Numbered from the stretch's first letter, positions 11,195 to 60,105 are shown. The stretch is DNA of 64,000 nt from an uncultured Nitrososphaeraceae archaeon (GCA_963729045.1 CAVSMN010000008.1:36444-100443), one strand, 5' to 3'. Notes: generated by a model from the letters alone, not told the origin. A program made the numbers and translations.

Positions 11195-11237
11195 GAATTC
11201 ATGATTTTACGGCATGGGTTCGAGTCCCACTCCAGGT
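11195..11237 (+). repeat. Family A site A1 (tRNA T-arm-like att site)
   Basis: GAATTCATGATTTTACGGCATGGGTTCGAGTCCCACTCCAGG. Confidence 0.8.
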
Positions 11238-11278
11238 TCACTTAGTATTTCAGACGACTATCCATATTCCGAAGTATA

Positions 11279-11314
11279 AACCCATGACTACCTGGCATGT
11301 AAACAAATCCCATC
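11279..11314 (+). repeat. Family B site B1
   Basis: AACCCATGACTACCTGGCATGTAAACAAATCCCATC. Confidence 0.8.
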
Positions 11315-11340
11315 ACCTCCTTAAATTAATAAGTTTATTA

Positions 11341-11389
11341 GTTGGATCCGCGATTATACGGTAAGGATTCGAGTCCCAAAACTTCATCT
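11341..11389 (+). repeat. Family A site A2
   Basis: GTTGGATCCGCGATTATACGGTAAGGATTCGAGTCCCAAAACTTCATCT. Confidence 0.8.
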
Positions 11390-11497
11390 ACTTAATTTTT
11401 CGGTGTATTTTTTGTGTTAATGATTTATTCATGTAGCTTTCTCTTTCAATTTAACAGATAAATAATTTGTAATTTATTCATAGATGATAACGGCTTC

Positions 11498-11686
11498 ATG
11501 AAAATGGTAAAAGCAAATGACGTCCATATTGAAGTAGCGTCATTAGAAGATATAAAAGAAATATTTACCGGATACAAAAGTATTAAAAATATTTACCTGT
11601 ACCAAAAACATGGTTATCATGAATTTAAAAGACTGTCCTTAGATGATTCGCCTGTAATGATATTTTTGGAGAAAAATGTAAGCTAG
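11498..11686 (+). pseudogene. GNAT acetyltransferase relic (internal deletion)
   Basis: N-terminal IEVASLED joined directly to C-terminal FTGYKSIKNIYLYQKHGYHEF. Confidence 0.55.
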
Positions 11687-11688
11687 AA

Positions 11689-13200
11689 ATGAAAAAATCA
11701 TCTTTTTCGTCTTGGAAGCTCCTTTTGATTTTGAGCTCTATCTCCATTTTGGTAATGTATGTAGAAACAATGTTATTACCTGCAATCCCAGACATCATTA
11801 GAGAGTTTAATATTTCTTATAGTATGTCCTCTTGGATATTTGCATCATTTGTAATATCTGCATTGATTTCTACAACCATAGTGTCAAAGCTATCCGATTT
11901 GTACGGACGGAAACTTATTCTTTTGACAGTATTAGTAATTTATACAGTGGGAATTCTTGGTGGTTCTTTAGCTAATGATATTTTTTGGTTAATCTTTTTC
12001 CGTATAATACAAGGTATTGGGATGTCTGTATTTCCCCTAGTTTTTGCAATTATCCAAATTGAAATTCCAAAAGACAAAATAGCTATAAGTCAAGGAACAC
12101 TGGCATCTATGTTTGCTTTCGGAGGAGTATTAGGATTAATGATTGGGGGAAATATTACACATAATTTTGGATGGCACATGACCTTCTTATCTATACTTCC
12201 GTTTACAATTATTGTAACCATCGTGATAAAGTATTTTGTCAAAATAAAAGATAAATCTCCCGTTGTGAAGGAAGCCAACAAATGGGAGTTATCTAATGAT
12301 ATTACAAATCTCAGCTCAAATCATAGGTATACAAAATCCCATAAAGTAGTTTCAAATTTTGATATTAAAGGAACCATCACCCTTGCTGTTACTATCATAT
12401 CATTTATTTCAGCACTAACATTGGTTCAATCAGAAAATAATGAAAGTGTGAAATCAGGTATATCAATTTCGACCTTATTGTTCGCATTGAGCGGTGTATC
12501 ACTGTTTGTTTTCATATTGCTCGAACGAAAAGTATCTGTTCCTCTAATTAATCTTCAATTGCTAAAATTAAAACCGATATTTCTAACAAACATCATCATA
12601 CTTATCTGGGGAATAGCTACATTTACCATTTTTCAAACTATACCAGTGCTTGTGAGGACTCCTCAGCCAATAGGTTTTGGGGGAAGTGCTTTAGATGTTG
12701 TCTACCTAACACTTCCATTTTCCATCATGTCATTGATATTTGGACCTACATCTGGTTTCATAATATCAAAAATTGGATCATTTAGGGTAATTATAGCAGG
12801 ATCAATAATAGCAACGATTGGATTTGGCAGTATTTTATTACTTTATAATAACCTTGTATGGACCGCGATAAGTCTCGCAATAATAGGTTCGGGATTATCT
12901 TTGTTAAATGTAGGTCAAATAAACATAAACACTGCTTCTACACCCATCAAATTCATAGGGATATCTTTTGGAGTAAATACATTATTTAGATTTATAGGCT
13001 CTGCTATAGGACCAGCTCTTGCAGGAATGTTAATGCAAATAAATCAAACACCTTTAAAAGTAGATGTTGCCACCAATATGACTAATTTTCCCTCATCTAA
13101 TTCATTTATGCAAATATTTCTTTGTATGACGCTGTTGTGTATTATTTCCGTGATACTATCTATTATGCTAAAAAAAGATGAATCTAAAGAAAGAGCTTAA
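11689..13200 (+). CDS. MFS transporter, DHA2 (EmrB/QacA-like)
   Basis: 503 aa, about 14 TM, SKLSDLYGRK motif A, RIIQGIG. Confidence 0.92.
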   Translation: MKKSSFSSWKLLLILSSISILVMYVETMLLPAIPDIIREFNISYSMSSWIFASFVISALISTTIVSKLSDLYGRKLILLTVLVIYTVGILGGSLANDIFWLIFFRIIQGIGMSVFPLVFAIIQIEIPKDKIAISQGTLASMFAFGGVLGLMIGGNITHNFGWHMTFLSILPFTIIVTIVIKYFVKIKDKSPVVKEANKWELSNDITNLSSNHRYTKSHKVVSNFDIKGTITLAVTIISFISALTLVQSENNESVKSGISISTLLFALSGVSLFVFILLERKVSVPLINLQLLKLKPIFLTNIIILIWGIATFTIFQTIPVLVRTPQPIGFGGSALDVVYLTLPFSIMSLIFGPTSGFIISKIGSFRVIIAGSIIATIGFGSILLLYNNLVWTAISLAIIGSGLSLLNVGQININTASTPIKFIGISFGVNTLFRFIGSAIGPALAGMLMQINQTPLKVDVATNMTNFPSSNSFMQIFLCMTLLCIISVILSIMLKKDESKERA

Positions 13201-13302: not shown

Positions 13303-13416
13303 TGGAAACCCGTGAAATCAAGAGACGAGTTCAAATTCCATTCCCTCCATTTGATGGGTTGTTTAACAGAAATAGATTCCCTGTTTTTATATCAGAGTTT
13401 CGAATTCCTCTCTTGG
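13303..13416 (+). repeat. Degenerate family A sites (A3a 13303-13350, A3b 13374-13416)
   Basis: GGAAACCCGTG...GACGAGTTCAAATTCCA; AGATTCCCTGTTTTTATATCAGAGTTTCGAATTCC matches the left arm of A4. Confidence 0.55.
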
Positions 13417-13658
13417 TTACGAAGTTTTCCTAATTAATACGCAAATCCGCTTAAAGGCTACACTTTAAACCAAATATTACAATTGGGCGCCGCATTGGTT
13501 GCTGTTCTTTTTATGATCATCCATAAATTGAAACAAGTTAGTCAGGCTAGTGAGGTTACAAGAAGGAGCATAGCGGGTTCAGACCCGAAACCTCGCATAT
13601 TTAATGTGCTTAAAACATGCGAATTGTTGACAAAAACCTTATCTATGTATGATTTTAT

Positions 13659-15557: not shown

Positions 15558-15590
15558 GAACCCACGACTACCTGACATGACAAATCCAAT
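15558..15590 (+). repeat. Family B site B2
   Basis: GAACCCACGACTACCTGACATGACAAATCCAAT. Confidence 0.75.
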
Positions 15591-15623
15591 TCTTTCTCAT
15601 TTCTAATCTAGCCTTCAATAATT

Positions 15624-15672
15624 AGATTCCCTGTTTTTATAGCAAGGCTTCGAGTCCCCCAACTTCGTCTGG
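15624..15672 (+). repeat. Family A site A4
   Basis: AGATTCCCTGTTTTTATAGCAAGGCTTCGAGTCCCCCAACTTCGTCTGG; the next ~45 bp also match those after A7. Confidence 0.8.
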
Positions 15673-15909
15673 TTTTGTATTGTTCAACTTATCAAGTTCT
15701 TGTTTCTTAAGAAAAAAATTTACTCTACTTAGGTATAACAGATCGAATGTAATTATCCCACTTTTTACATTGGATCGGACTTATATATCTAAGAATCATG
15801 TACCCTGTAGATATCGTATAGATATAAGATAGATAGTAAAAAAGAAGTTCATTTTTCTGCTAAAAAACTTGCAACTGATGAAATAGTTTGGTATACTATT
15901 TTCTAATAT

Positions 15910-21581: not shown

Positions 21582-22841
21582 TTATTTGACATAAAGAACA
21601 CTTGTGGAATTAGGCTTTAATTGATCAATGGTAATTATTGTCTTGTCCTGCTCGTCATAAACCACATCTTCTTTTACTAACTGTAGTACCTTGTCTACTT
21701 TAAAAGAGATTTCTTCAATCAACTCATTGCCTGATTTTATAGTTATCTTTTGACCTGTAATTGCAATATTAATTTTTTTTATCTTTCTTATTCGTTGGTA
21801 TAAATCGAAGAAAGTTGTCTTCCATGAAAAGGGAATTTTATTGAACAGATGTAAAATTTGATTCCACTGTTCAAACAAGTTTTTTCTAGTAATAGAATCA
21901 TGATTCCAATCATAAAAATAATGATGATAGTGGTTTAGAATACCTAGAGGTGTTCTTTGAACCATGGAATAAGAGATGGTATTGGATATCCATTTTACAA
22001 ATGTTTGTGAAGATTCTTGTTCTTTTTCTGCATTTTTATTGGAATTTGATATAGGATTTATTTTTAGCCTTCTAGGGATATATAGCATTATTCCCTGACT
22101 ATGCTTGTTATTATAGTAATCGACATTAGACATGATAAAGGGAATAATAAATCCCACATTGGCAAATTTTTTTAAAAGTTTACTTGCAAAATATTTTTTA
22201 AAATAACTGGGAACGTATGATGATCTAAAAAATCTATGGTAGTTTGATTGTCCATAGATAGGAATCATGCCAAGACTTGATAGGAGATTTAGATTGTGCG
22301 TAGAAAAGTCATCAAATGGAGGAACAAACAAAACTGGATTAATATCAAAGGATTTTCTTATTATATCCCTTCCAATATTTACATAGGATTCAAAGCCTAT
22401 CTTGTTGTTCTTTTCATAACCATCAGTATTTAGTGACCTGTAATAATGAGTAAATGTATCTTTTATAGTTCTGTTTATATCTTCACTCTTTCCGTCAATC
22501 TGCTGACTAAACTCTCCTCGACCATCAATTAAATCATGAGTTACACCATGTTGAATAATCTCAATCTTACTGTGTCTGATCTTTTCTTTTAAAAATGTGC
22601 ATAATTCTTCATTGTTCTCAATGGAATGATGTTCTGGAGAGTTCCTGAAATCAGGTGGGACACAAGCATCATTAATTGTCTTTTGATAAGGTATCACAGA
22701 TAGACTTACTTTGAATTGATTATTCCATGCGTTAGAATATATTGATTCGAGCATATTGCTTTTTGTAAAAAAATTAGTATCATCATCTCGAATTAAAATA
22801 GGAATTTTACCGTTGGGTCCTAGTAGTGGAGTAATCGTCAT
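21582..22841 (-). CDS. DUF2334 / polysaccharide deacetylase-like protein
   Basis: LIRDDD, SLSVIP, EIIQHGVTH, GEF, LFVPPF. Confidence 0.8.
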   Translation of the reverse strand: MTITPLLGPNGKIPILIRDDDTNFFTKSNMLESIYSNAWNNQFKVSLSVIPYQKTINDACVPPDFRNSPEHHSIENNEELCTFLKEKIRHSKIEIIQHGVTHDLIDGRGEFSQQIDGKSEDINRTIKDTFTHYYRSLNTDGYEKNNKIGFESYVNIGRDIIRKSFDINPVLFVPPFDDFSTHNLNLLSSLGMIPIYGQSNYHRFFRSSYVPSYFKKYFASKLLKKFANVGFIIPFIMSNVDYYNNKHSQGIMLYIPRRLKINPISNSNKNAEKEQESSQTFVKWISNTISYSMVQRTPLGILNHYHHYFYDWNHDSITRKNLFEQWNQILHLFNKIPFSWKTTFFDLYQRIRKIKKINIAITGQKITIKSGNELIEEISFKVDKVLQLVKEDVVYDEQDKTIITIDQLKPNSTSVLYVK

Positions 22842-23069
22842 CTATTGCTAAAGAAATCATTAATGCTTTTAAATCGTCCATTATCATCATACTCTAATGG
22901 ACCATGTTTATATCAGATAATCATATCATATCATCAGTTTTTGAGGGCTATCTATTTTTACTTCCTACAAGTTGCTGAAATAAATTAAAAATGAATAGTT
23001 AAGGAAATGACATATCTCATAAATCAATATGTCTAGTATGCGATGTTAAATTAAGGAATTTTTAAAAAA

Positions 23070-23345
23070 ATGAATTCTAATCATGTAAAGCGAATTGATT
23101 TCACTAAATCGGTAGAATATGATGATAAGGAGGATGTTTATTATGTGAAATCGGTTACTTCAGGAGAGAGATATAAGGTTAATAAATTAAAGGATAATAA
23201 CCATTGGTTTTGCACATGTAAAGGATATTTGTATTCGGCTGGAAACCCCAAGAAATGCAAACATACTCAAAGAATTAGAGTTATTGATCAGTTGTATAAA
23301 AAATATGCTGATAAGATTACAAACTTCGAATTAAAAGATAGATAA
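23070..23345 (+). CDS. SWIM zinc-finger protein
   Basis: WFCTCKGY...KCKH. Confidence 0.75.
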   Translation: MNSNHVKRIDFTKSVEYDDKEDVYYVKSVTSGERYKVNKLKDNNHWFCTCKGYLYSAGNPKKCKHTQRIRVIDQLYKKYADKITNFELKDR

Positions 23346-23428
23346 TTGATCTTCATTAATGTGAACGTTATAGACGTCTATTAATTTTTTATATGGAGAT
23401 TCTGCCTCGGTTACATAACTAAACCTTA

Positions 23429-23624
23429 CAAAAGATCTATAGTTGATTCATGATTTAGATAGGTATTGTTTTTTTGCACAGGATTATAATCAACCTTGAA
23501 CCGTATCCCCACGGGCCCGGACCTTGAAAGATCTATAGTTAATTCATGATTTAGATAGACATTGTTTTTTTGCACAGGATTATATTCAACCTTGAACCGT
23601 ATCCCCACAGGGCCCGGACCTTGA
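23429..23624 (+). repeat. Tandem duplication of a ~96-bp unit, each ending in a family C site (C4, C5)
   Basis: 2x AAAGATCTATAGTT..TTCATGATTTAGATAG...GCACAGGATTATA.TCAACCTTGAACCGTATCCCCAC(A)GGGCCCGGACCTTGA. Confidence 0.92.
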
Positions 23625-23660
23625 TTAGTCAACCAGTTGAAAGAGTAGGAGGCTTTTTTT

Positions 23661-23710
23661 GTTGGAACCCACGTCAGAAAGACGTAGATCCGAGTCCCAC
23701 TCCCGGCGCC
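23661..23710 (+). repeat. Family A site A5 with tRNA-Ser-like 3' end (att-like)
   Basis: GTTGGAACCCACGTCAGAAAGACGTAGATCCGAGTCCCACTCCCGGCGCC; no D or anticodon arm upstream. Confidence 0.85.
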
Positions 23711-23773
23711 TAAAACAGGGAATCATACCATATTTTTATATAATTTGACGAATATCATCAAGTTATTAGTAAA

Positions 23774-24022
23774 TTGTCAGATGTGGTCGATCAAATAACT
23801 TTAGGATTATCTAGACCTTATTTTCGTAACATCCTAAAGAAATTACGTGAAAACAACCAAGAAAATGCATACACAATATGTAAACATATTCTAACTGAAC
23901 AAGCCGAATTTAATATCAAGAATAGCACAAAGGAGGGAAAATTAGGATATTGGTACGGCTCTCAAACTTTTTTGACGATAGAAAAAGATACCAAGACATG
24001 ATCAAAGAAGATATTTTTTTTA
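23774..24022 (+). pseudogene. Truncated N-terminus of a Nitrososphaerales-type tyrosine integrase
   Basis: DQITLGLSRPYFRNILKKLRENNQENAYTICKHILTEQAEFNIKNSTKEG then, after a frameshift, KIRILVRLSNFFDDRKRYQDMIKEDI; recognised from recall of the family, catalytic domain absent. Confidence 0.6.
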
Positions 24023-24194
24023 TATTGATTGACTGATTGTGCCAATATTTGTCTATATTATGAAATACTTACAGGTATAAAAATACTAAATTTCAAAAAG
24101 AAAGTTTGTTTATTCTCATATTGAAATGGTAACTTTTCGTTGGTCAACTTTAAAATGTATTTTTTTAGTTCGGTTTTCATTTGTTTTTATAAAA

Positions 24195-25792
24195 TTATTT
24201 TTTTAAAGGTAAACTAAAACTAAATGTAGCACCATTACCGTCCCTATTGTTTTCAGCCCAAATCTTTCCGCCATGAGCTTCTATTATGCTTTTTGATATA
24301 TACAAACCCAAACCAGTTCCAATAAATGAATTTGAAACAAATTTTTTAAATAAATATGGCATTATTTCCAGATCAATTCCTAATCCTGTATCTATTACGG
24401 CAATTACGACTTCGCTATTATTTTTTTTCTCCATTGTTACAGCTATCGATCCTTTTGTTGTAAACTTTATTGCATTATTTACAAGATTTGACAATACTTG
24501 AGTTATTCTATTTTTGTCTCCTTTTACAACTACGTGACCCTTTGGTGACATCTTTAATTTACCATCGTCATTTTCTTTATTGTTAAAGTCATTTTTACAT
24601 ACAAATAATACATTTTCTTTCTTTTTTTCCATATCTATTGTACAATCATTTATTGTATTTGATATGACGTCAAGAAGATCAAATTCTCCTATGTCAAGCT
24701 TCAATTCATTACTTTCAATTTTAGTTACATCTAGAATATCGTCGGTCAGTTTTTGTAACCTTCTTGCATTTCTATATATGATTGACACACCACGTTCTAT
24801 TTCTTTCATATCAACATGTTTTTTATTTTGAAAATCTCCATTAAGCATTCCTGAAAGCCCGATAATTGGTTGAATCGGTGTTCTCAATTCGTGAGCAGAA
24901 ATGTTTAAGAATTGATCTTTCATCTTTTCTGCTTCTTTGACTTTTATATATTGATTTCGTATAAGAGCATTGCTTTTTTTTAAATTCTTGGTATAGTGTA
25001 TACTAGATAAAGCAAGTGCTATGATGTTGACAAAATATCCCGCATCTTTAATCACATGAGCTAGGTTATGCGCAGTATCAAAAGAAACGGCAGAAAAAGA
25101 CATTATGATTTGAGCGAATATGTCAATTATGAGATAAATAAGAATACCTTTATAAAGAACGTCTTTTTTTAGGTAAAGTCGTTTTTTATAGAAAAAGAAC
25201 AAAGCAAGGACAAACAATATCAGAGGTGGAATCTCATAGGGCCTATGAACGGAGTAATCATCTAAAACAGAGGCAGGAAAGACCAAAAATAGTGAGCTCA
25301 AAGCAATACTAGATGCCAATACACCTAAAATTATTATATATAGAATGGAGTTGTCTATTATATTTTTTTTAGATTTTTAGAGGGGTTGATCTTTTGATCA
25401 GTATCATACTGTTTATCAAGATTGACAAGGTCTTCTTCTTCTTCTTTAGATGTGTATGAATATTTCACTACTGCAATTAAGAGCATAGCGCTGAGAAAAA
25501 ATCTTCCTGCAAACCATGTTTGAGGAATGAAATACTTCAAGAAATCAATATTTTCAATTAGTGTTATTGATACTATTACGTGTAACATATCAATTAATCC
25601 GCTAATTAGAAATCCGATACCAACAAAAAGGCTAAAATTGTCCTTTAAAACTCTTGCACGCAGAATATAATAGAAAGCTAATGCTGAAACTAAAATAACT
25701 GCAAATAATTCAATATAAAAATGATGGATTTCTGATGCCACCCACAAAAAAGGATCAAAAGATATGATAGTTAGTATTATGAGAGGTATCAT
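24195..25792 (-). pseudogene. Membrane sensor histidine kinase (MASE3-like N-terminus), split by one frameshift
   Basis: SAHELRTPIQP, QVLSNLVNNAIKF, DTGLGI, GTGLGL; adding one A to the A8 tract at ~25363-25370 joins ORFs 25358..25792 and 24195..25319. Confidence 0.85.
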
Positions 25793-25892
25793 AGGTAAGA
25801 GCGTAAATTTGACTAATACTCTAAAGAATACTGAATTATTGTTATGGAATAAACTTTTATGAATCGTTATAAACAGAACTTATTTCTATTGA

Positions 25893-27423: not shown

Positions 27424-27476
27424 CGAATTTGGAACCCCGTCTGAAAGCCGTAGATTCGAGTCCCAACTTCGTCTGT
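27424..27476 (+). repeat. Family A site A6
   Basis: CGAATTTGGAACCCCGTCTGAAAGCCGTAGATTCGAGTCCCAACTTCGTCTGT. Confidence 0.88.
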
Positions 27477-45140: not shown

Positions 45141-45238
45141 ATTTTGATTCTACTTCCATTGCTATAAAGGCTTTTTCTATAACATAAGATCAGTTGATGA
45201 AATTATTTTATATATCCATATGAGTTGATAAGAAGTGT

Positions 45239-46153
45239 ATGACAATTAAAAATTGTAAAGAGCACTTTATTTTGTTAATTGCATTAGTATTAACAGCTAG
45301 TTGGATATTAGGTTCGTATGTCGAATTTAGCATATTCACAAACGATAGGAGGCGTCGATTTAAGTAAAATTCCAGGATTGCAAAATTTAACCGGATTCAA
45401 TAATGTACCTACAGCTGATAATGGACAGGGTACAGAGGAAGGACAGGGTACAAATAATGTGCCTACAGCTGATAATGGACAGGGTACAGAAGAAGGAAGG
45501 ACAGGGTACAGGACAGAAGAAGGACAGGTACAGAGGAAGGACAGGGTACAAGAAGAAGGACAGGTACAGAAGAAGGACAGGGTACAAATAATGTACCTAC
45601 ATTGGACGATGCTTCTGATGAACCAAAATCCAATCAAATAAAGATATCATTTACAGGAACAGTGACACAGATGGACGATAGATCAAATCTATTATATGGC
45701 AATGTGAAGGTCGGAACTCCAATAACTGGTGAATACACTTACAGACTTCCAACAAAGGATACAAATACAGATCAGACTGTGGGAGATTATCCACATGACA
45801 GAAAGGCATTTGGAATAACGGTCAATGTAGGGGGATTTGTTTTTAAAACCGATCCCAAGAATGTCAATTTCTTAGTTGAACTTGTGAACCGGGACACAGA
45901 TCACTATTTGTTAAGAAGTTACAATAATCTTCCACTATCTGATACAATCCCAATTGAGCATATCTCTTGGCAATTAGATGATGAAACAGGAAATGCACTT
46001 TCTAATGACTCATTAAAGTCAGCTCCAATTCCTCCCATTCTGCAAAACTGGAAAGATCCGTATGGCCTGACAATAACCGGTGGAGCTGATCGCGATCCTA
46101 CTCAATCCTTCTTTGTACGGGCTCATATAGATTCAGTAAATTTGATTTCTTAA
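45239..46153 (+). pseudogene. Secreted protein with GQGTEE tandem repeats, frameshifted
   Basis: ATG 45239 signal peptide, ORF 45318.., repeat tract, then globular domain ORF 45602..46153. Confidence 0.65.
45399..45600 (+). repeat. Nested tandem repeats (18-bp GGACAGGGTACAGARGAA within 54-bp units)
   Basis: About 9 GGACAGG(G)TACA units and 3 AATAATGTRCCTAC units. Confidence 0.9.
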
Positions 46154-46241
46154 AGGATTGCTTAACAAACATCATGTCATTTTTTTATTTATTTTGTGCC
46201 GATTTCTCGGTTCTATAGTTGGTTTGCTTAATATACGGACA

Positions 46242-46296
46242 TTGAACCTCAGTTCGAGAGACGTAGATTCATTCCGTTTCCCCCTCCTCCACCCAA
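46242..46296 (+). repeat. Family A site A11 (degenerate)
   Basis: TTGAACCTCAGTTCGAGAGACGTAGATTCATTCC..., CCTCCTCC tail like A13. Confidence 0.5.
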
Positions 46297-46487
46297 CTAT
46301 GTTTGAGTTCCTCTTTGATCACAGAACGGTCGACACAAAATTACAAATGGCATATCTATTCGCCCACTCACTAAGCAGAGCTACAACTAGTTTGAAAGGT
46401 TCATGCTGTTTTGATATACAGTCACAGCACCATCGTACATAATTTTATTGAATTCTTTACCATCATTTATTTTCATACTTTTTCTTC

Positions 46488-46943
46488 TCAAGATTGAATC
46501 AACTGTTTCAGTTCCTTGGTTAGAGCATCTATCTTTTCAGGATTTCCCAAGTACTGGGCTCTTGTGTTCTGAAAAGAGGTAAATTTCCACCCTTGATCAG
46601 TCTTAACTGCAACAATAGTATGTATAGAATTTCTTTCATGGTTAATGCTATTACTACCTCTCTCAATCGTTCCGCTTATTCCTACAACGATAGCGACAGT
46701 GGGTATGGGGAATCTTATGTGCTTAACCTTTCCGACCAAGCGGGTGCCTCTTACAAATTTGTCAAATAGCATTGCATGGAACGTTATTATTTGCTGCTTT
46801 CCTTCCAAATAGGTTCCATCAAACCCAATAAAATCAGCATCTTCTGAATAGGGTTCTGCAAACTTTGCGGCATCACCGATATTCCATCCACATATCTTTT
46901 TTTGGTAAAGTTGTTGTATTTCTTTTGAGTCAGTCTCAGGCAT
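46488..46943 (-). CDS. SgcJ/EcaC-like NTF2-fold protein (DUF4440)
   Basis: WNIGDAAKFAEPYSEDADFIGFDG...WKFTSFQNT. Confidence 0.85.
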   Translation of the reverse strand: MPETDSKEIQQLYQKKICGWNIGDAAKFAEPYSEDADFIGFDGTYLEGKQQIITFHAMLFDKFVRGTRLVGKVKHIRFPIPTVAIVVGISGTIERGSNSINHERNSIHTIVAVKTDQGWKFTSFQNTRAQYLGNPEKIDALTKELKQLIQS

Positions 46944-47292
46944 CTTTCGTCACCGCCCCAAAATTTTGGCTTTTGTGCAGTTGGGATTCAACGATCATTT
47001 TGTCATTTGGCTTTAGGAGAAGCTTGACACCTTTTTGATCTTGTCTGCCTCCAACAATCAGCTTAGTTTGATCACTCGAATTGATTATGCTATCTACAAA
47101 TAGTTCGATAGATTCAACCCTAAACCCTTCGAACCAAGTCGAAAGATCGTCAATATCTATTTCAAACAGGTCAAAAAATTTCTTGTCCTTGTAATGTGAA
47201 AGATCTTGCGGCAAGTGCACATCTTGTTCTTTAAGTCTTGGAAAAACCAGTTGGATTTTCTTTGTTACTTTCGATTTATTTTCCATAGCCAT
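46936..47292 (-). CDS. Hypothetical protein
   Basis: 118-aa ORF overlapping the start of the downstream gene (operon-like). Confidence 0.7.
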   Translation of the reverse strand: MAMENKSKVTKKIQLVFPRLKEQDVHLPQDLSHYKDKKFFDLFEIDIDDLSTWFEGFRVESIELFVDSIINSSDQTKLIVGGRQDQKGVKLLLKPNDKMIVESQLHKSQNFGAVTKDA

Positions 47293-47385
47293 ATTACATA
47301 TTACTCAAAATATAAATGTTTTAGTTTTTGAGTATTTTAGAAGTTAAACATATATGATAAAGGATATCAACACAATCATAGAATA

Positions 47386-47895
47386 ATGAAGAAGGATATT
47401 GACTACACCCGTCAAAACCTGATAGAACTTTTGCATAAGCAATTTCGTGAACTTAGCAGCCGGACCGTCCTGTTCCACCATTGGATAAGTGAATTATTGG
47501 GCCTTAACACAATAGACCACAAGTGCCTAGACATAATAGTCAAATCAGATTCCCCACTGACGGGTGCACATCTAGCCAATATCACGGGCCTATCAAGCGG
47601 TGCTATAACCGGAGTGATCGATAGGTTAGAGAAGCGTGGATACGTTATCAGGGACAGAGATCTGAAGGACCGTCGACTGGTATATGTAAAGCCGATTATG
47701 TCTAGGATTGAAAAGGAGGTTTTCCCCGTCTTTAATTCTCTCCACGAGATAATGACAAAGGTTTATTCAAATTACTCCAACAATGAGCTGGAGTCTATGC
47801 TCGATGCTACTACCAAAATTAATCAGATAATGAACGAGAGAACCAAAGAGATAATGGAAAAGATATCACAAAGAAAAACCACAAAAAAAGGGTAA
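47386..47895 (+). CDS. MarR family regulator
   Basis: LANITGLSSGAITGVIDRLEKRGYV.R..D..DRR. Confidence 0.92.
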   Translation: MKKDIDYTRQNLIELLHKQFRELSSRTVLFHHWISELLGLNTIDHKCLDIIVKSDSPLTGAHLANITGLSSGAITGVIDRLEKRGYVIRDRDLKDRRLVYVKPIMSRIEKEVFPVFNSLHEIMTKVYSNYSNNELESMLDATTKINQIMNERTKEIMEKISQRKTTKKG

Positions 47896-48234
47896 ACAAT
47901 TTAGAATAAAAAACCATTAAAAATATAAAACTTGTTACTTGAGTTGGAAAAAGATTAACTTATGATTTAAGCCATTCTGCCGTTACAAAAAAATGTGAAT
48001 AACCGATAACATATTGAAATAATTTTTTAATTTATTATCACATTTTTTTATAAAGAATTAGCAGATTTGGAAAAATTTTGTCACGACAATATATCCATGA
48101 ACATATGACATATTAGATAAATCCGACTATGATGTATGTATGAATGTGTGAGTGGGTGGACTCGTGTCCAAACAGCCCTAGTCAATTTTACCTATTGAAT
48201 ATGAAATTCTCACTTGTTAGGTCTTAAATGTAGA

Positions 48235-48705
48235 TTACTCATTATTCATTCTCCCATTTACCTCAGTCCCAACAAAATTCTCAAGTCTTTTGACATACCA
48301 ATCCCAACCCTCATTGTGTTCATCATATTGTAATCTATCTGCATTTGTAAACCCGCTATGGACTAAAGTTAATCTCGTTTTATCCTTGTCTATCTGATCT
48401 AGTTTCCAAGTAACAATGGTTTCCTTACTGTAATCAGGTTTTGTTGTAAAGTTCCAAGTATAAGATAGCTCTTTATTTGGGATGATACTAATGATTGTTC
48501 CAATAACATCGTGATCTTTTTTTTCTTTAGTGACTTCCTTTGAAAATCTAAAAAATATTTTTCCCCCGACTCGTGGTTCTACGGTCGCCATGTTGGGAAA
48601 CCACTGAGTCAGTTGCTCAGGATCGATTAGAGATGAAAATACTTTGTCCACTGATGCATTTATTACTATTTCTTTTTTAATAATGTCATAATTTTTATCA
48701 TTCAT
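48235..48705 (-). CDS. SRPBCC/AHSA1 domain protein
   Basis: INASVDKVF..LIDPEQLTQWF, TRLTLVHSGF, HNEGWDWY. Confidence 0.9.
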   Translation of the reverse strand: MNDKNYDIIKKEIVINASVDKVFSSLIDPEQLTQWFPNMATVEPRVGGKIFFRFSKEVTKEKKDHDVIGTIISIIPNKELSYTWNFTTKPDYSKETIVTWKLDQIDKDKTRLTLVHSGFTNADRLQYDEHNEGWDWYVKRLENFVGTEVNGRMNNE

Positions 48706-49028
48706 TTCTTTTCCTTTTCCTTTTCCTTATCACTTTTTTCCTCTACAAGCACTTTAAGATCTTCGAGACTTTGTCCCCACATTTTATCAAAAAAATCTTT
48801 TATTTCCATAGTTGTTTTAGGATTAATTGAATATCTTTTTTTCTGTCCTTCTCTAGTTTCCTTTATTAGATCTGCATCCTTTAAGATTCTTAAATTGGTA
48901 GATACAGCAGCCAACGTTGTATCAAAATGCTTGGCTATCTCCGTAGGATACATTTCGTGTTCTCTTAGAAGCAATAAAATACGCCTTCTATTATCTTCCG
49001 CCAATGCTTTCCAAAGCGACCCTGCCAT
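48702..49028 (-). CDS. ArsR/SmtB family regulator
   Basis: WKALAEDNRRRILLLL, AVSTNLRILKDADLI; typical ArsR-SRPBCC pair. Confidence 0.9.
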   Translation of the reverse strand: MAGSLWKALAEDNRRRILLLLREHEMYPTEIAKHFDTTLAAVSTNLRILKDADLIKETREGQKKRYSINPKTTMEIKDFFDKMWGQSLEDLKVLVEEKSDKEKEKEKK

Positions 49029-49093
49029 TACTATAATAAAATAGTTATATAGTTATTTAAATCTTTAAATATTGTCTATCATATCTATATTCA

Positions 49094-49861
49094 ATGTCAA
49101 TAAAAGAACAAAAAGAGAAAAATGATAAGAAAGAGAAGTATGTTTCTGATAATCATAAAATAGTTTCACAAAGTGAATGGATGGAGGCTCGTAAAGATCT
49201 GCTAGCAAAAGAAAAAGAATTTACCATTTTGCGTGATCAACTTAATCAAGAGAGACGAGATCTACCATGGGTTCAAGTTAATAAAGAGTATGTCTTTGAT
49301 GGGCCAGATGGAAAACAAACTTTGTCAGAACTTTTTGATGGAAGAAGTCAACTAGTAGTCTATCATTTTATGTTTGGTCCAAGCTGGGATGCAGGATGTC
49401 CAAGCTGTTCCTTTTGGGCCGACAACTTCAATAAAATAATTATACACCTGAATCAAAGAGATGTGACTATGATTGCCGTATCACGTGCTCCATACAACAA
49501 GATAACTGCCTACCAAAAGCGGATGGGCTGGGATTTTAATTGGGTCTCTTCTTATGATAGTGATTTTAATTTCGACTACCACGTATCTTTCACGCAGGAA
49601 GAATTAGCAAAGAAAGAGGCGTTTTATAATTATGTTGCACAAGACATAGGTGTTTCAGAGAAGGAAGGAGTCAGTGTATTTTTTAAGGATCCTGCAGGTC
49701 ATATTTTTCACACCTATTCAACCTATGCGCGTGGTATAGATATGTTAAATGTAGCATATAACTATCTTGACTTGGTTCCCAAGGGTCGAGATGAGAGAGG
49801 TCACGAATTTCTGCAATATTGGGTTCGTCGTCATGATGAATATGGTAAATATGGTAAATAG
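49094..49861 (+). CDS. DUF899 thioredoxin-like protein
   Basis: LFDGRSQLVVYHFMFGP, GCPSCS, HTYSTYARG, LDLVPKGRDE. Confidence 0.92.
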   Translation: MSIKEQKEKNDKKEKYVSDNHKIVSQSEWMEARKDLLAKEKEFTILRDQLNQERRDLPWVQVNKEYVFDGPDGKQTLSELFDGRSQLVVYHFMFGPSWDAGCPSCSFWADNFNKIIIHLNQRDVTMIAVSRAPYNKITAYQKRMGWDFNWVSSYDSDFNFDYHVSFTQEELAKKEAFYNYVAQDIGVSEKEGVSVFFKDPAGHIFHTYSTYARGIDMLNVAYNYLDLVPKGRDERGHEFLQYWVRRHDEYGKYGK

Positions 49862-49970
49862 CTACCACCTATCCTTATTTCTATTTATTCATACTCTAAT
49901 GCGATATTGTCAAGTAGTTCTGGTCCGTGAATGCAAGAAAGGAGTTTAAATCCCATCTTCGCTATATTAG

Positions 49971-51437
49971 TTAACGGTTAATGATCTGACGGAGAGATTG
50001 TATCAGTTGAGAGAGAGTTCCATTATTGGACTTTGCACTAGAATTATTAACATCTTTAAGATTGTCAAGCATTCCACTTTTATTATTTGAACTATTAAAA
50101 TCATTTGAAAGGGGATTGACATTAGCTGGGCTAGTATCTTCATTATCTAGCAAGGATAAAGTACTATTAATCAGACTTGGTGCCTGCTTGACAAACACTA
50201 CTCCTTTCAAACTAGCATCATTTTTATCAAAGTAATCAAAACGTCCAGGTTGAGTAAAGTTGTAAGAAAACTTATCACCGGTATTCATATAGTCAGAATC
50301 AAAAAGTGGAATTCCAACTCTACCCGTCGTGATGCCGTTATTTACGAAAGTATTATTGTTAATGGAAGTAACAGTATGTACGGATGAATGATTGTTGGTC
50401 CATACGACGATAGTGCCGATATCAACAACAATTTCATTTGGTACAAAGTTTACCGTTCCAAAGAAGCCGTTCTTCTCAGCCGCTTTTATTTGAATATCTA
50501 CTGCTTTATCTTTTTTCAACTGGGCATTTTCACTACCTCTAGTATCGTTAATTTGGGAACTTTCATGAAGCTGACCTCCTGTTGATAAGTTCGCCTCTCC
50601 ACCCTTTGAAGCAGACTCGGTTGTATTGTTTTTTTGTCCAATTTGACTATTAGTTAAATTATTTGGTACAATCGGGTTAGAACTGGTCGAATTAGACCCT
50701 GTAGAAGCTGAAGTGGTGGTTTTGTTTGTGCCTGTTATAGATTCTTCTAATCCAATTGTAGATGTATTGAGATTTGTAACTAAAGGTGGCGCTAGGCCTT
50801 CATCATAGGACGCGGGTAAGAGCAACTTGAATGAGTTGATCATTTGCTCTACAACAGGAAAGTATCTATCAAATTTTTCCTCTTGTCCAACGTAAGTAAC
50901 AAAATATGCAGTATTGTTTAACAAAATTCCAGTTTCAAAGTTTTTAAGTGTAATCGGTTCTTGACCATCTTCGCCACTGAGAACTTCGGTAAAAGTCAGA
51001 GAATAAGCAGGTTGACTCGAAAGAGAGTCAGAAGTTGAAGATTCAATTAATGTAAAGTTATTGGCGATATCTTTGTAAGTGTTGATCGCTTCTGCTAAAT
51101 ACTCATTTAGGTCGACTTCAGAGAAAATTCCATCGTCCCTATTTATCGTTACGTATTCAATGTAAGTATCATTGTAGGTTTCAAACGGCGATACAAACTC
51201 TGCGATAAGGTTGACTCTGTCTTCAGGCGTTATGTCTGTTTCATTCACTGACCAGGTTGATGGATAATTCATTGATACATTGTCATCGTAATTAAAATAA
51301 TGATACATCTGTGTGGTCTGAACACCACTTACGTTTCCTTGATTTTGTCCCAGTATATAATTATCAGTAAGAGAGGGTATCAACAATAGAATTGATGGAA
51401 TTAATGTTAAACAAATTAAATTACGATAAGTAATCAA
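49971..51437 (-). CDS. Secreted PsbP-like + cupredoxin-fold protein
   Basis: Signal peptide; SMNYPSTW...VEQMINSF; FVPNEIVVDIGTIVVWTN...HTVTS...FSYNFTQPGRFDYF. Confidence 0.8.
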   Translation of the reverse strand: MITYRNLICLTLIPSILLLIPSLTDNYILGQNQGNVSGVQTTQMYHYFNYDDNVSMNYPSTWSVNETDITPEDRVNLIAEFVSPFETYNDTYIEYVTINRDDGIFSEVDLNEYLAEAINTYKDIANNFTLIESSTSDSLSSQPAYSLTFTEVLSGEDGQEPITLKNFETGILLNNTAYFVTYVGQEEKFDRYFPVVEQMINSFKLLLPASYDEGLAPPLVTNLNTSTIGLEESITGTNKTTTSASTGSNSTSSNPIVPNNLTNSQIGQKNNTTESASKGGEANLSTGGQLHESSQINDTRGSENAQLKKDKAVDIQIKAAEKNGFFGTVNFVPNEIVVDIGTIVVWTNNHSSVHTVTSINNNTFVNNGITTGRVGIPLFDSDYMNTGDKFSYNFTQPGRFDYFDKNDASLKGVVFVKQAPSLINSTLSLLDNEDTSPANVNPLSNDFNSSNNKSGMLDNLKDVNNSSAKSNNGTLSQLIQSLRQIINR

Positions 51438-52891: not shown

Positions 52892-52930
52892 GAAAAGCCA
52901 CAATTATGCGGTATGGATTAATCTCACTCT
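52892..52930 (+). repeat. Family A site A12 (degenerate)
   Basis: CAATTATGCGGTATGGATTAATCTCACTC versus A14 GATTATATGGTATGGATTCGAGTCTCACTC. Confidence 0.5.
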
Positions 52931-53167
52931 TAATTAAGATCGAGCAAAAGTTTGACACTTAAACAAAGGTTCGATTTTGGTTCTAAATAAATAATGTCAT
53001 CTTTTGTCCTAACTGCCTTTAATCTTATGATGCAATAATAGTTTAATAACTTAAATCCCAAAGGTAGCTGGTACTTTTGATGTTATATAAATTGCTATAT
53101 ATTGGTCATCATTATCAATCAAGTCCATTATTTACTAAATCTATAAATAGTTACGGTCATAATTTAA

Positions 53168-53857: not shown

Positions 53858-53925
53858 TCGATAGAACCCACGCCTTAAAGACACAGATTCCAATCCCATC
53901 TCCTCCTCCCATCCAATAACTTCGT
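53858..53925 (+). repeat. Family A site A13
   Basis: TCGATAGAACCCACGCCTTAAAGACACAGATTCCAATCCCA...AACTTCGT. Confidence 0.65.
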
Positions 53926-57944: not shown

Positions 57945-58378
57945 ATCGATTTACAGCATGTTTAAGATACACATTTCAGAAAATAGCTACTTATTATCGT
58001 ATTAGAAAATATTGTTCTTTGCAAACACCACCAGAAGTCGATCATAAAACAGACGGAAAGTTAAGAAAATAAGAGAAACATAAAAGCGATCACTTGATAG
58101 CAACCATCTTAATGTTAGAGAAGATAAGGAAATCAAATCTTGCATAAAATAAGAAAAGGAAAAGGAAAAAAAAATATGAGTTACAGAGAAAATTATTGAA
58201 GAATTACTAAAAATTATAGTTAAATGAATATTGAAAATAAGAGATCTTTTAAAAATCCATCTTTTCTAAACTTGGTAAAGAGGATTAGGATGTTAGAATC
58301 ACTAGCATTCTAAGCTTTAACAGTGACTCCATTGCATCAATTCCTAATAATCCTACTGCAGTATCTTTTAGATCCATG

Positions 58379-58675
58379 TTATGGATTCTTTCTAGAATAC
58401 CAGCCAGTACAGGCGTGCTTTGTCCTCAACTGATTAATACTTTCTTCAACTATTTGGTCAAGATTCTTATCCTCCCCTATGAATGCCAATCTCGTAGCGT
58501 GAGTCTTCAATAGAGTCCTTACAGGATCAACTACTACGAATACGCTAAGGACTTCTTTCAAATCCATGTCCGGAATTCTTTCTAAAATGGCAGTAAAAAT
58601 TGGGTACTTTGTCCTCAACTCATCACTCTGTTCCTTAACCTTCTGAGGGCTGGCATTTTCATTTGAACTAGTCAT
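58379..58675 (-). CDS. Hypothetical protein (possibly C-terminally disrupted, internal duplication)
   Basis: 98-aa ORF with repeated LRTK; a MDLKD.A segment follows the stop. Confidence 0.45.
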   Translation of the reverse strand: MTSSNENASPQKVKEQSDELRTKYPIFTAILERIPDMDLKEVLSVFVVVDPVRTLLKTHATRLAFIGEDKNLDQIVEESINQLRTKHACTGWYSRKNP

Positions 58676-58737
58676 AAGTCACAATCTCCAATCATGGTAT
58701 TTTAAGCTTACTTCTATTGCTATAAGATTGTAGTTTC

Positions 58738-59020
58738 ATGAAATCGGTGATGTTTCTAATTCATCCGAGTTCAAAGACATATGAGGTCTCTTGGTGTTGT
58801 ACCTTGTTATGAATACATCAAAGGATTCAAAGTACATCATATTTGATTGAAATGTCTCGTAGAATCTTTCTATCCTACCATTTGTTTGAGGATGATGTAC
58901 TCTTTCCAAATGTGTTTGATCTTTCTACTGACTGAAATGTATCTATTGCAACTGCTTTAATTTCGCCGGAATTGGCATAGAACTTACCACCCTCCATTGA
59001 TGACGGGAACTCGACCATAG
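58738..59020 (-). mobile_element. IS481/IS3-like transposase (rve) C-terminal relic
   Basis: Manual translation HHPQTNGRIERFYETFQSN...YNTKRPHMSL. Confidence 0.75.
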
Positions 59021-59108
59021 TTTTTTATCTCAAATATGGTAATTAGAAATTGTGCAGCGACATGTTCACAACGACGGATAAATATAAATAGAATGGTAGA
59101 CATTATTT

Positions 59109-59639
59109 ATGAGATTCCAGATGCAATTTTATAAAACAAAACAATGTATTATTCTACCTGTATTAGCCACAATCATCACTTTTACCCTCCTAAGTTTACC
59201 GGGGTTAGGGAACCAATATGCAAACTCCCAATCTAATGAAACAAACTCGACCTCAAATACTACAAGTACTGGCGTTGAGCTGAAAGATATACTTCCCTCG
59301 CCTTTACATTTAAAGTCTGGCAGCAAATTTCAAATTATTGCAACAGTTGTTAATGATTCACCAAATAAGATAACATTTACTGCAGGAGTATGCGATTCAC
59401 CTATATCTGCACAATTTCTCAAAAATGTTGTAATAAGATATATGCAGGGCTGTACTGCAACTTCACCTCCTTTCGAATTACAATCTGGAGAAGAAGTTAC
59501 TGTAGCGGGACCATCTTCTGGCACAATTTATCAAGCATTAGCAGCTGGACAAACAACAGCGAGCGCCACTTTTTATTACCAGACTGAGAATGGACAGGCC
59601 GCAAACATTACACAACCGTTTGTATTCACAATAGGTTAG
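59109..59639 (+). CDS. Secreted hypothetical protein
   Basis: Signal peptide, beta-rich domain with two Cys. Confidence 0.75.
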   Translation: MRFQMQFYKTKQCIILPVLATIITFTLLSLPGLGNQYANSQSNETNSTSNTTSTGVELKDILPSPLHLKSGSKFQIIATVVNDSPNKITFTAGVCDSPISAQFLKNVVIRYMQGCTATSPPFELQSGEEVTVAGPSSGTIYQALAAGQTTASATFYYQTENGQAANITQPFVFTIG

Positions 59640-60044
59640 CATTACCGTCTAAATCCTTTTTTCTATATCTTTGTGGCTTCGCCATGACCTACTGACTCGC
59701 AAAGTTCTTACTCGATAGAAGTAAAACCGACTGTTGTTCCGTACCAATGATCCCAAGTGTACCTGCACCTCGTGTATTCGTCTAACTTTCCCTGCAATCG
59801 AGTACCACATTCGTTAAAATGCTCTTGTCAAACACATTATGTGAAATCTATAATCATAAAATTGGAAATTACGACTAGTTTTTCGATAGGCTAAGAAGAA
59901 AAAACAGGTTTGATTGGATCTACTTACCATTAACTAATGTTATTCTATATTATTTCGGTTGTAAATGCGCTAAAATTTACAAAATATATTCTTTCTAATC
60001 TTTGAAAATTAAGTCAGTTCGGATCCAGAGGTAATTCTAATTTA

Positions 60045-60105
60045 TGAATCTGTGATTATATGGTATGGATTCGAGTCTCACTCCCGAGGCTTAAAACAGG
60101 AATCA
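60045..60105 (+). repeat. Family A site A14 with tRNA-like 3' arm
   Basis: TGAATCTGTGATTATATGGTATGGATTCGAGTCTCACTCCCGAGGCTTAAAACAGGAATCA; downstream flank shared with A5. Confidence 0.8.

Follow-up and report, generated by a model that had tools for sequence, protein, structure and literature searches.

The accessory-gene island of this soil ammonia-oxidising archaeon is best read as a set of decayed tyrosine-integrase elements that integrated serially into an upstream tRNA-Ser(CGA) gene (probability of about 85%). The stretch analysed (64,000 nt, hereafter the window) would make up the body of an island in the genome of a Ca. Nitrosocosmicus. The integrase would cross over inside an 11-bp core, and every new integration would rebuild the tRNA using the element's own right arm, displace older material downstream, and leave an internal junction made of one element's left arm, the core, and the next element's right arm. 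The repeated sites of the window would be such internal P-core-P' junctions, all co-oriented because each takes over the orientation of the tRNA. The integrase would later have been lost from most elements, with an 85-aa stub as the remaining trace, and the remainder would be accessory-gene blocks with an att site on either side. Blocks would have been permuted, duplicated, and removed in different species by recombination between sites and by ordinary deletions. Site anatomy, the tRNA anchor, the integrase association, and breakpoints at the core are observed here; we infer the order of events, as well as integrase rather than homologous recombination as the maker of the exchanges. Tandem accretion of decayed integrative elements is of a known kind; its scale here is unusual, and it includes right arms that cannot restore a tRNA.

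The predicted two-intron tRNA-Ser(CGA) gene was located on the same contig (C8:35554-35706, +), 738 bp upstream of window position 1. Its acceptor stem is a perfect 7 bp, its T arm is intact, and its anticodon loop carries CGA. Once the two introns had been removed in silico, tRNA-Ser(cga) was the commonest ARAGORN result (994 of 1945 calls among 26520 variants), a call that depends on our own intron parse. ARAGORN in default and intron modes missed the gene at C8:35554-35706, and with a lowered threshold mis-parsed it as an intron-bearing tRNA (7-bp acceptor stem and T arm); Rfam gave no tRNA at the orthologue in the complete genome G032. The contig is collinear with the core genome of G032 over C8:5585-35708 (91-94%), and this collinearity halts exactly at the 3' end of tRNA-Ser(CGA). 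An intact target gene at one end, followed by repeats that copy its 3' part in the same orientation, is a feature of accretion arrays. No site was detected with the covariance model in the first 11 kb past the gene, which counts against accretion.

Sites were searched for with a core motif and a covariance model. The motif (RGATTCGAGTCCCA, up to 2 mismatches) gave 10 matches in the window, all on the + strand, with 0.58 expected, and none of 100 shuffles reached that number. The covariance model was trained on 11 site copies and run unfiltered over the whole window. All training copies were found again, as was an untrained copy (13372-13425, E 6e-4), all on the + strand; the single minus-strand match at E <0.1 overlapped the copy at 53861. 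Twelve of the 15 positions listed in the original prediction were supported, all 12 on the + strand, whereas 13303, 46242, and 52892 had no covariance-model match at E ≤ 5 in the window and were judged by eye to be degenerate or of another type. The site repeat was present in 31 of the 34 genomes of the genus. In the archaeon's own genome, 13 matches other than tRNA genes fell in C8 (11 strong, all +, and 2 weak, one per strand) and 5 outside it; four of the latter lay no more than 5 kb from the end of a contig (C9, C16 twice, C5), and the remaining one was weak and internal to C10. All 16 matches in G032 were on a single strand within 65 kb. Genome-wide scatter in random orientation was thus absent from both genomes, and the anticipated clustering of co-oriented copies beside tRNA-Ser was confirmed in the archaeon's own.

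A T-arm origin had been suggested for the sites. They are indeed tRNA-derived, but the likeness extends beyond the T arm alone and covers the entire 3' half of a class-II tRNA, from the 3' strand of the anticodon stem to that of the acceptor stem. The claim that they are hairpins was not supported: RNAalifold on the 11 copies returned 0 pairs and no consensus structure. The variable-arm-like stem was paired in 71% of cells, with covariation that was not significant, and the T arm in 9% (3 positions, set a few columns off the true T stem). Overall, 48% of cells in the named tRNA-like stems were paired, which was not above shuffles.

Each site consists of a tRNA-like left arm, the 11-bp T-loop core TTCGAGTCCCA (the T loop plus the 3' strand of the T stem), and a right arm. 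Arms were typed in 59 sites from 6 genomes. They fell into discrete types, at least four on the left (I-IV, plus the genuine tRNA) and at least four on the right (a-d), found in the combinations I+a, I+b, I+c, I+d, II+a, II+b, III+a, III+b, IV+a, and IV+c. The type b right arm is the exact 3' end of tRNA-Ser(CGA). Type a right arms match no tRNA of the archaeon's own genome and are unable to restore tRNA-Ser, so elements carrying them could not have entered via the functional tRNA gene itself, and accretion needs the extra assumption of integration into internal sites.

Breakpoints were compared with an ungapped walk in 1225 pairs from 50 sites. Only the downstream flank was common to 19 pairs, and homology stopped at -6 to +3 of the core start in 8 of these; of the others, 4 had the same left-arm type and 7 were indel artefacts of the ungapped walk. 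Where only the upstream flank was common (27 pairs), homology stopped at +7 to +10 in 16. Homology between genomes thus changes over at the core, both in the pair comparison and in direct junction alignments. Synteny breaks between relatives fall at the sites, as had been anticipated, and the chimeric internal att sites exchanged at a common core are those of an accretion array.

All features described in this paragraph and the next lie on the + strand. The att-site relic at 11192-11245 (covariance model, 47.4 bits) has a type II-like left arm, the core, and a tRNA-Ser-like (b-like) right arm. The hybrid att site at 11341-11396 (type II left arm, core, type a right arm; covariance model and arm sequences) comes before the MFS block and has an orthologous site with this block in G004:C5. 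A possible site of another type, with a TTCAAAT-like core, was seen by eye at 13303-13355, where the model missed it; a left arm resembling it occurs in G004:C31. The degenerate copy at 13372, outside the training set, has a type III left arm and a decayed core. A homology block common with G032 begins at this copy, and 13381-14954 matches G032 at 96%. The hybrid site at 15622-15677 (covariance model, arm sequences) joins a type III left arm and the core to a type a right arm, the conserved part of which is ~80 nt long and matches the right arm of the 31009 site at 87% over 79 nt. At 23662-23715 (covariance model, arms), a type I left arm and the core are followed by the tRNA-Ser(CGA) 3' end (type b) and then by an integrase leader, which matches G002:C137 and G031. 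A relic of this leader with no adjoining site was found at 61999-62042 (86% over 44 nt).

Type I left arms are combined with type a right arms at 27428-27481 (alignments, arm types), 31009-31062 (alignments), and 40961-41016 (covariance model, alignments). The dioxygenase block begins at the core of the 27428 site (homology onset 27453-27455), and in G032 it stands behind a type I and a type III left arm. The 31009 site is followed by an aquaporin, phosphatase, methyltransferase, and HxlR block, which in G004:C5 stands behind a type III left arm, with the switch at TTCGAG. Collinearity with G032 picks up again at the 3' edge of the 40961 site. A type I left arm and a decayed core precede the M28 peptidase block (36691-36744; covariance model, alignments), and 38029-38082 is a hybrid of type I and type d arms (covariance model, alignments). 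The relic at 46242-46295, type I-like and strongly decayed, was recognised by eye, was unmatched by profile and covariance models, and is doubtful. That at 52892-52945, also recognised by eye, has a type II left arm and has lost the core; it is probably real, since the G032 synteny block ends at 52896. Two sites supported by the covariance model are orthologous in G004 and G032: an older one at 53861-53914, with both flanks homologous, and a hybrid at 60043-60096 (type II left arm, tRNA-Ser-like right arm with leader), at the 5' edge of whose copy contig C9 terminates.

The named gene blocks lie between sites as claimed: an M28 peptidase is the sole gene between 36691 and 38024, a kinase and a cyclase lie between 23661 and 27424, and an MFS gene lies between 11341 and 13303. 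Sites just past minus-strand stop codons were likewise found, abutting those at 27482, 36782, and 38102. Blocks hold from 1 to ~10 genes on both strands, and site orientation is independent of the direction of neighbouring genes. The cargo consists of ordinary metabolic and signalling genes, and no other mobile-element hallmarks were seen among the window ORFs (Pfam); both observations count against accretion. Block order varies among the Ca. Nitrosocosmicus genomes G000, G004, G031, and G032, with orientation constant. The tRNA-proximal part (11-41 kb) is permuted and the distal part (41-64 kb) is collinear at ~90%. Several differences between genomes lie away from sites and weigh against accretion: 45148-51333 is missing from G004, and 38776-41015 is missing from G032, with a single edge at a site. 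One metagenome contig (a single contig, 92% likeness) connects 38039 to 40972, the joint lying within an 8-nt left-arm identity, 9-17 nt before the core. One metagenome joint that goes back, from 28534 to 23687 (side of 34), was also seen in a single contig with 92% likeness.

In relatives, a predicted tyrosine recombinase gene of ~450 aa begins 50-250 bp past such sites. Its PF00589 scores were 23.6, 27.3, 31.5, and 30.8 bits (cut-off 27.1), and an Arg in an 'ARP.E(I)L' motif, an 'LRH' motif, and a C-terminal Tyr, assigned by eye in the alignment, are putative catalytic residues. Such adjacencies were found in 13 places in 10 genomes. In G002:C137 the site is followed by the integrase after ~50 bp; in G031 the distance is ~65 bp, and the integrase there follows an intact tRNA-Ser(GCT), itself matched by the site profile. 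In G033:C330 the site runs up to and into the beginning of the integrase frame, and in G002:C44 a site lies ~130 bp upstream of an integrase gene interrupted by one TAG. The family was present in 31 of the 34 genomes of the genus, with many copies and many stubs per genome in relatives. Elsewhere in Nitrososphaerales, 11 of 22 relatives had a tRNA-Ser-like T-loop/3' end within 700 nt upstream, which in 5 of the 11 was part of an intact tRNA-Ser(GCT) (ARAGORN). Single integrations in G032 and G012 run from tRNA-Ser(GCT) through the integrase and 19-21 kb to a 25-bp repeat of tRNA positions 61-85 (T loop to 3' end). Arm and core anatomy, breakpoints at the core, and this adjacency in relatives bear out the proposal that a tyrosine integrase used these tRNA-derived sequences for recombination.

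An intact integrase beside the array, also expected, was found in relatives, as in accretion arrays, but the window has only the 85-aa stub (23774-24027, +; the first ~85 aa of the gene). In tblastn, the stub matched the G002:C137 integrase at 86% (residues 1-57) and 70% (residues 53-85), and it was the only integrase match in C8. Pfam found no integrase among 65 window ORFs, and no intact cognate integrase was found in the archaeon's own assembly (87% complete), which weighs against accretion; integrase activity in this strain is therefore putative.

The internal P-core-P' junctions may still be live substrates, a tentative suggestion. The island would then be an integron-like reservoir without an integron, from which integrase-less cassettes could be excised as circles and re-inserted at any array site, in trans, by tRNA-Ser integrases of resident or incoming elements. 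Such cassettes keep ~100 nt of conserved sequence at their ends. Notable among these ends is the type a right arm, which on this reading could live only inside such arrays because it cannot rebuild a tRNA. If true, this would explain why, across Ca. Nitrosocosmicus, two different tRNA-Ser genes are followed by the same small blocks in differing order. Alternatively, the sites could be passive relics, and homologous recombination between repeated arms could have shuffled, deleted, and duplicated the blocks later. Over 30-100 nt, same-type arms share 80-95% identity, enough for homologous exchange, the 38039-40972 joint lies before the core, and such recombination between tandem integrated archaeal elements is invoked in the part of a review drawn on here (PMC8371274). 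We consider this unlikely: the exchanged arms are of unrelated types with only the 11-bp core in common (for example, types I and III before the same block), and 11 bp of identity is short for homologous recombination and typical of a recombinase core.

An integron-like dedicated platform, in which one host integrase maintains a cassette reservoir and tRNA-like sites act as attC, would account for accessory blocks parted by co-oriented sites, for species differing in block order with constant orientation, for type a arms (~80 nt conserved) before different cargo, and for the G031 integrase and primary site heading an array that holds several of the same blocks. It is nevertheless improbable, and this part of the original prediction is not upheld. 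TIGR02249 (IntI) had no match in the archaeon's own genome at E ≤ 0.01 (assembly 87% complete), the only integrase remnant belongs to a different family, a consensus hairpin and covariation are both absent, and blocks reach ~10 genes on both strands. Site and downstream integrase share a strand, which is the layout of ordinary integrative elements, and the integrase occurs as many copies and stubs rather than as a single platform gene; arrays stand at two different tRNA-Ser genes. Accretion is preferred to an integron because of the intact tRNA at the proximal end, the P-core-P' hybrid junctions, and the integrase leader and stub after a site. A tRNA-derived non-autonomous transposon (MITE/SINE-like) spread within the region would fit a short, repeated, tRNA-like sequence found genus-wide (31 of 34 genomes), but matches cluster in one orientation downstream of tRNA-Ser genes and beside integrase genes, and left and right halves combine independently of each other, unlike the halves of a transposed unit. 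This reading is contradicted by the clustered, co-oriented copies in the own genome and G032, without target-site duplications in junction alignments, and is very improbable. Equally improbable are functional small RNA genes or transcript-processing signals (tRNA-like punctuation): the sequence is tRNA-like and some copies abut stop codons, but no Rfam family matched in the window, the sites lack a consensus fold and covariation (T-arm positions, a few columns off the true stem, pair in 9%), and their orientation is unrelated to that of adjoining genes.

Archaeal integrons were reportedly described in 2022. The array resembles integrons in its co-oriented recombination sites between accessory blocks, its tyrosine recombinase, and an order that varies among relatives. 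Of four integron features, this arrangement of sites is present here, and an IntI-type integrase, folded attC sites, and cassettes of mostly single promoterless ORFs in one orientation are missing. Unlike in integrons, the array grows at a tRNA gene, its sites are double-strand att-type sites with a common core, and its blocks are multi-gene and on both strands. In Sulfolobus, She et al. reportedly described 'gene capture', in which an integrase traps elements at tRNA genes. In that system, relic tRNA-fragment repeats likewise mark old integrations and captured genes stay chromosomal; its attP reportedly lies within the integrase gene, which is split on integration, whereas here the integrase lies beside the site and was lost by deletion.

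Krupovic et al. 2019 (PMC6563490) surveyed mobile elements integrated in thaumarchaeal genomes, cryptic ones in tRNA genes among them, and noted that arrays may form when elements re-use a site. These elements similarly use tyrosine recombinases and the 3'-distal part of tRNA genes, including intron-bearing ones. In the part of that source drawn on here, short att sites (median 17 bp) and tandem casposons are reported, not a multi-site array of integrase-less blocks, and the word Nitrosocosmicus is absent from its main text. The closest likeness is to bacterial tandem accretion of integrative elements and cis-mobilizable elements (CIMEs) of the ICESt1/ICESt3 type, in which tRNA genes or other targets are occupied at their 3' end, as presented in the part of PMC5704250 used for comparison. 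There, too, older elements decay to integrase-less blocks that retain attL and attR, internal att sites are chimeric, and repeats are co-oriented. Unlike those, the present array has no conjugation genes among the window ORFs (Pfam), its host is an archaeon, and its target is a two-intron tRNA-Ser(CGA). It packs at least 12 sites into 49 kb, with blocks down to 0.15-3 kb, and draws on four or more families each of left and right arms, one of the right-arm families being unable to restore the tRNA.

A search of the window with RGATTCGAGTCCCA at up to two mismatches gave 10 matches, all on the + strand (chance expectation 0.58). A profile of 11 copies, run against the own assembly (GCA_963729045.1; 2.85 Mb, 22 contigs), recovered these 11 copies in contig C8 (CAVSMN010000008.1, which holds the window), all on the + strand, together with two extra weak matches in the same contig, one per strand. 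Outside C8, the profile gave five non-tRNA matches, four of them no more than 5 kb from a contig end (C9, C5, and two in C16); C10 carried one weak internal match, and genuine tRNA-Leu and tRNA-Ser genes of the assembly were matched weakly. An unfiltered covariance model run on the window returned the 11 training copies and 13372-13425 (E 6e-4), supporting 12 of the 15 positions listed in the original prediction; 13303, 46242, and 52892 were not recovered. The shared orientation and clustering of the sites were borne out, all supported window copies being on the + strand. Site model matches were obtained in 31 of 34 genomes of the genus Ca. Nitrosocosmicus, and in the complete genome of a relative (G032) all 16 profile matches in a 100-kb stretch were on one strand (605-670 kb).

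The copies look like the 3' half of a class-II tRNA, in which the 3' strand of the anticodon stem is followed by a long variable arm, a T arm (decayed here), and the 3' strand of the acceptor. Anchored at the core, 59 sites from six genomes resolved into a left arm (P), a core, and a right arm (P'), the arms being of discrete types. The left arm (~30 nt) is of type I (GGAACCCACGTCYGAAAGACGTAGA), II (GACTCCACGATTATACGGTATGGA), III (AGATTCCCTGTTTTTATAGCAAGGC), or IV, or that of a genuine tRNA-Ser, and the 11-bp core common to the sites is TTCGAGTCCCA. Right arms of type a consist of AACTTCGTCTGG and then ~60 conserved nt, those of type b of CTCCCGGCGCC and then the TAAAACAGGGAATCA leader; types c and d are further discrete types. 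The types combine in many ways, and the window set comprises I+a, I+b, I+d, II+a, II+b-like, and III+a. Neither RNAalifold nor pair counting on the site copies gave a consensus fold. The variable-arm-like stem was paired in 71% of cells without significant covariation, and three tested pair positions of the T arm were paired in 9%, a rough value with the columns a few positions off the true T stem. The term hairpin, by which the sites had originally been titled, is not supported.

Two further features were observed upstream of left arms. The motif CATGACTACCTGGCATGTAAAC at 11283-11304, with diverged copies at ~15560-15600 and 28499-28534, precedes type II/III left arms by 40-90 nt; no second copy was found at up to three mismatches, the stretches at 15560 and 28499 being more diverged. 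The copy at 28499-28534 is followed by no site in the window and is joined to the core at 23687 in one metagenome contig. A 97-bp tandem duplication at 23431-23625, just upstream of the 23662 site, is present as a single copy in one metagenome contig and may belong to the type I left arm. Part of the duplication (~33 nt) is found again at ~20631 and ~21384 in the window and in contigs C18 and C1.

The 100-kb stretch of G032 is the inverted homologue of the window. Positions 41016-63960 are collinear with it at ~90% identity, with orthologous sites at 53861 and 60043, and the 11-41 kb part is permuted. Two other relatives, G004 (shared blocks 82-96% identical) and G031, carry common blocks in yet different orders, block orientation relative to the sites always being kept. 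The left arm before the aquaporin block is of type I in the window and of type III in G004, and the dioxygenase block occurs at two places within G032, after type I and after type III; in both junction alignments, similarity starts at TTCGAG. For breakpoint comparison, 1225 pairs from 50 sites were compared by an ungapped walk, with positions given relative to the core start. Only the downstream flank was common to 19 pairs (same left-arm type in 4), and homology ended at -6 to +3 in 8 of them; only the upstream flank was common to 27 pairs, with the end at +7 to +10 in 16. Since 1-nt indels break the ungapped walk, 7 of the 19 and 8 of the 27 pairs were counted as artefacts. Both flanks were common to 6 pairs. 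These homology ends confine the exchange point to the 11-bp core. Not all differences between genomes fall at sites; some are plain deletions elsewhere. The permuted blocks and the switching of homology at the core bear out the proposal that the sites are recombination sites splitting the region into exchangeable blocks.

The island cargo includes transporters, sensor kinases, and peptidases. The block at 31260-33778 encodes an aquaglyceroporin-type MIP channel, a low-molecular-weight phosphatase, a SAM methyltransferase, and an HxlR regulator, a set that we take to be reminiscent of arsenic detoxification. The tRNA-proximal part of the island also contains a carbamoyltransferase pseudogene (5549-7170), whose N-terminal, middle, and C-terminal Pfam matches fall in three successive ORFs. 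An insertion specific to G032 (L002:13722 to L003:5593 of the fetched loci; G032:C1, ~633.7-645.6 kb) lies within the array, encodes a ParB-like protein, an APOBEC-like deaminase, and several large proteins of unknown kind, and may represent a defence island or a mobile element in a more complete state.

Neither ARAGORN (default and intron modes) nor Rfam at gathering thresholds reported anything in the window or in the 100 kb of G032. A candidate tRNA gene was recognised through a 30-nt tRNA-Ser-like match, which forms the proximal array edge in both G032 and the own contig (C8:35664-35693), followed by manual intron parsing. C8:5585-35708 is collinear (91-94%) with a core region of G032 that carries ribosomal protein and exosome genes, and homology stops exactly after ...CTCCCGGCGCC. 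The predicted tRNA-Ser(CGA) gene occupies C8:35554-35706 on the + strand (153 nt, ending 738 bp before window position 1). It has a perfect acceptor stem (GCCGGGG/TCCCGGC), an intact T arm, the anticodon loop CTCGAGA, and two insertions read as introns, one in the D-arm region and one after the anticodon loop. ARAGORN missed this gene in default and intron modes, and an Rfam gathering search of the G032 orthologue also gave no tRNA. When the two candidate introns were removed in silico, tRNA-Ser(cga) was the commonest ARAGORN call (994 of 1945 over 26520 variants). On the end of homology, the cloverleaf features, and these calls, the island is anchored at a predicted + strand tRNA-Ser(CGA) gene with two apparent introns, as judged from sequence. 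The type b right arms reproduce the 3' end of this gene at displaced positions, and the same tRNA sequence precedes integrase genes in two relatives (G002 and G033). As tRNA finders miss such a two-intron tRNA-Ser, islands of this kind would look 'orphan' in routine annotation.

A Pfam search of 65 window ORFs gave no integrase. In relatives, weak PF00589 matches were found beside sites, and the fetched loci encode a tyrosine recombinase of ~450 aa. The integrase starts ~50 bp after a site in G002:C137 (contig 137 of that genome) and, in G031, ~65 bp after an intact tRNA-Ser(GCT) that is itself matched by the site profile; downstream of the latter integrase lies a co-oriented array containing several window blocks. 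In G033:C330, the beginning of the integrase frame abuts a site and overlaps with it; the integrase gene of G002:C44, which has a site ~130 bp upstream, is interrupted by one TAG. Members of the family, often N-terminal stubs, were found in 31 of 34 genomes of the genus, and coordinate comparison gave 13 site-integrase adjacencies in 10 genomes. One such stub was detected by tblastn of the own genome at 23774-24027, covering the first ~85 residues (86% identity over residues 1-57, 70% over 53-85); it directly follows the 23662 site and leader and is the sole integrase match in C8. Among 22 integrase relatives elsewhere in Nitrososphaerales, 11 are preceded, within 700 nt, by a T-loop/3' end resembling that of tRNA-Ser, which in 5 is part of an intact tRNA-Ser(GCT). 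Single integrations in G032 and G012 consist of tRNA-Ser(GCT), integrase, 19-21 kb, and a 25-bp repeat of tRNA positions 61-85 (T loop to 3' end). The own assembly (completeness 87%, contamination 0.85%) contained no intact cognate integrase; its tRNA-Ser(GCT) is at the very end of contig C19, and an intact integrase may therefore be unassembled.

The anatomy of the array is that of a tandem accretion of integrative elements. Downstream from the tRNA, the order would be a tRNA-core-P' junction, element n, a P-core-P' junction, element n-1, and onward, each internal junction combining the left arm of one element with the right arm of the next. Arm types would be freely combined because internal junctions join the arms of neighbouring elements, and junctions built from the ends of two elements would account for the ~100 nt conserved to either side of some sites. 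Tandem accretion would likewise explain why all sites point one way and why a type b arm is followed by the leader and the integrase stub. The most recent material would be expected nearest the tRNA, which agrees with a proximal half that is permuted and a distal half that is conserved; site decay showed no clear trend with distance from the tRNA. Integrase loss would leave blocks between attachment (att) sites, and att-flanked blocks devoid of integrase are described in bacteria, in part of PMC5704250, as cis-mobilizable elements. Tandem integration and site re-use by archaeal tyrosine-recombinase elements are described in parts of PMC6563490 and PMC8371274. Several results fit tandem accretion less neatly, including the deletions away from sites and the missing intact integrase noted above. 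Type a right arms have no matching tRNA in the own genome and cannot rebuild tRNA-Ser, so their elements must have entered at internal sites, and the Pfam search of window ORFs found mobile-element hallmark genes in no block except the one holding the stub.

Natural variation was followed in contigs of four soil, sediment, and rhizosphere metagenome runs from four studies, aligned to 22000-41999 at 92% likeness, with contig depth and contig ends left out as evidence. In one contig (depth 2.8, side 69, 8 shared letters), 38039 is connected to 40972, so that exactly the block between two sites is missing; in another (side 34), 28534 is connected back to 23687, which is the core of the 23662 site. 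With one contig each at 92% likeness, these joints are hints only. The joint 31040>39831 was set aside (side only 21), and those at 23512/23610 reflect the 97-bp tandem duplication. A stretch of ~1.6 kb without an ORF of at least 80 aa (33780-35390) is a dispersed repeat, with 94% identical copies at C12:136244-137847 and C7:24120-25730, partial copies in C21 and C9, and contig depth several-fold over its neighbours in the four runs. In the own assembly, C9 carries a copy of 60035-63960 at 92-98% identity, and the contig stops exactly at the 5' edge of this copy. Many contig ends are 92-99% identical to the interiors of other contigs (e.g., C14 start/C6, C16 start/C19, C22/C20, C9 end/C8 end), which suggests strain variants or recent large duplications.

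Tandem accretion at a tRNA gene represents a main route of accessory-gene gain and reshuffling in a widespread genus of soil ammonia-oxidising archaea. With the island, a defined core for recombination and a candidate family of integrases become available for testing; if active, the integrase might serve as an integration tool for these archaea. Integrase-flanked genomic islands of Ca. N. epidermidis are mentioned in PMC13245735, whose main text gives no tRNA or site detail for them. In the literature searched on thaumarchaeal integrated elements and on Nitrosocosmicus genomic islands and integrases (for PMC13245735 and PMC6563490, the main text), this array was not described. The initial filing of the array as integron-like fails, as the searches gave no IntI-type integrase in the own genome, no consensus fold of the copies as in folded attC sites, and, in the window, no series of single-ORF co-oriented cassettes. 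Only the general layout is common to integrons and this array. If integrase-less blocks are still excised and re-inserted in trans at any array site, the island would be a second, independently evolved way of building an integron-like gene reservoir.
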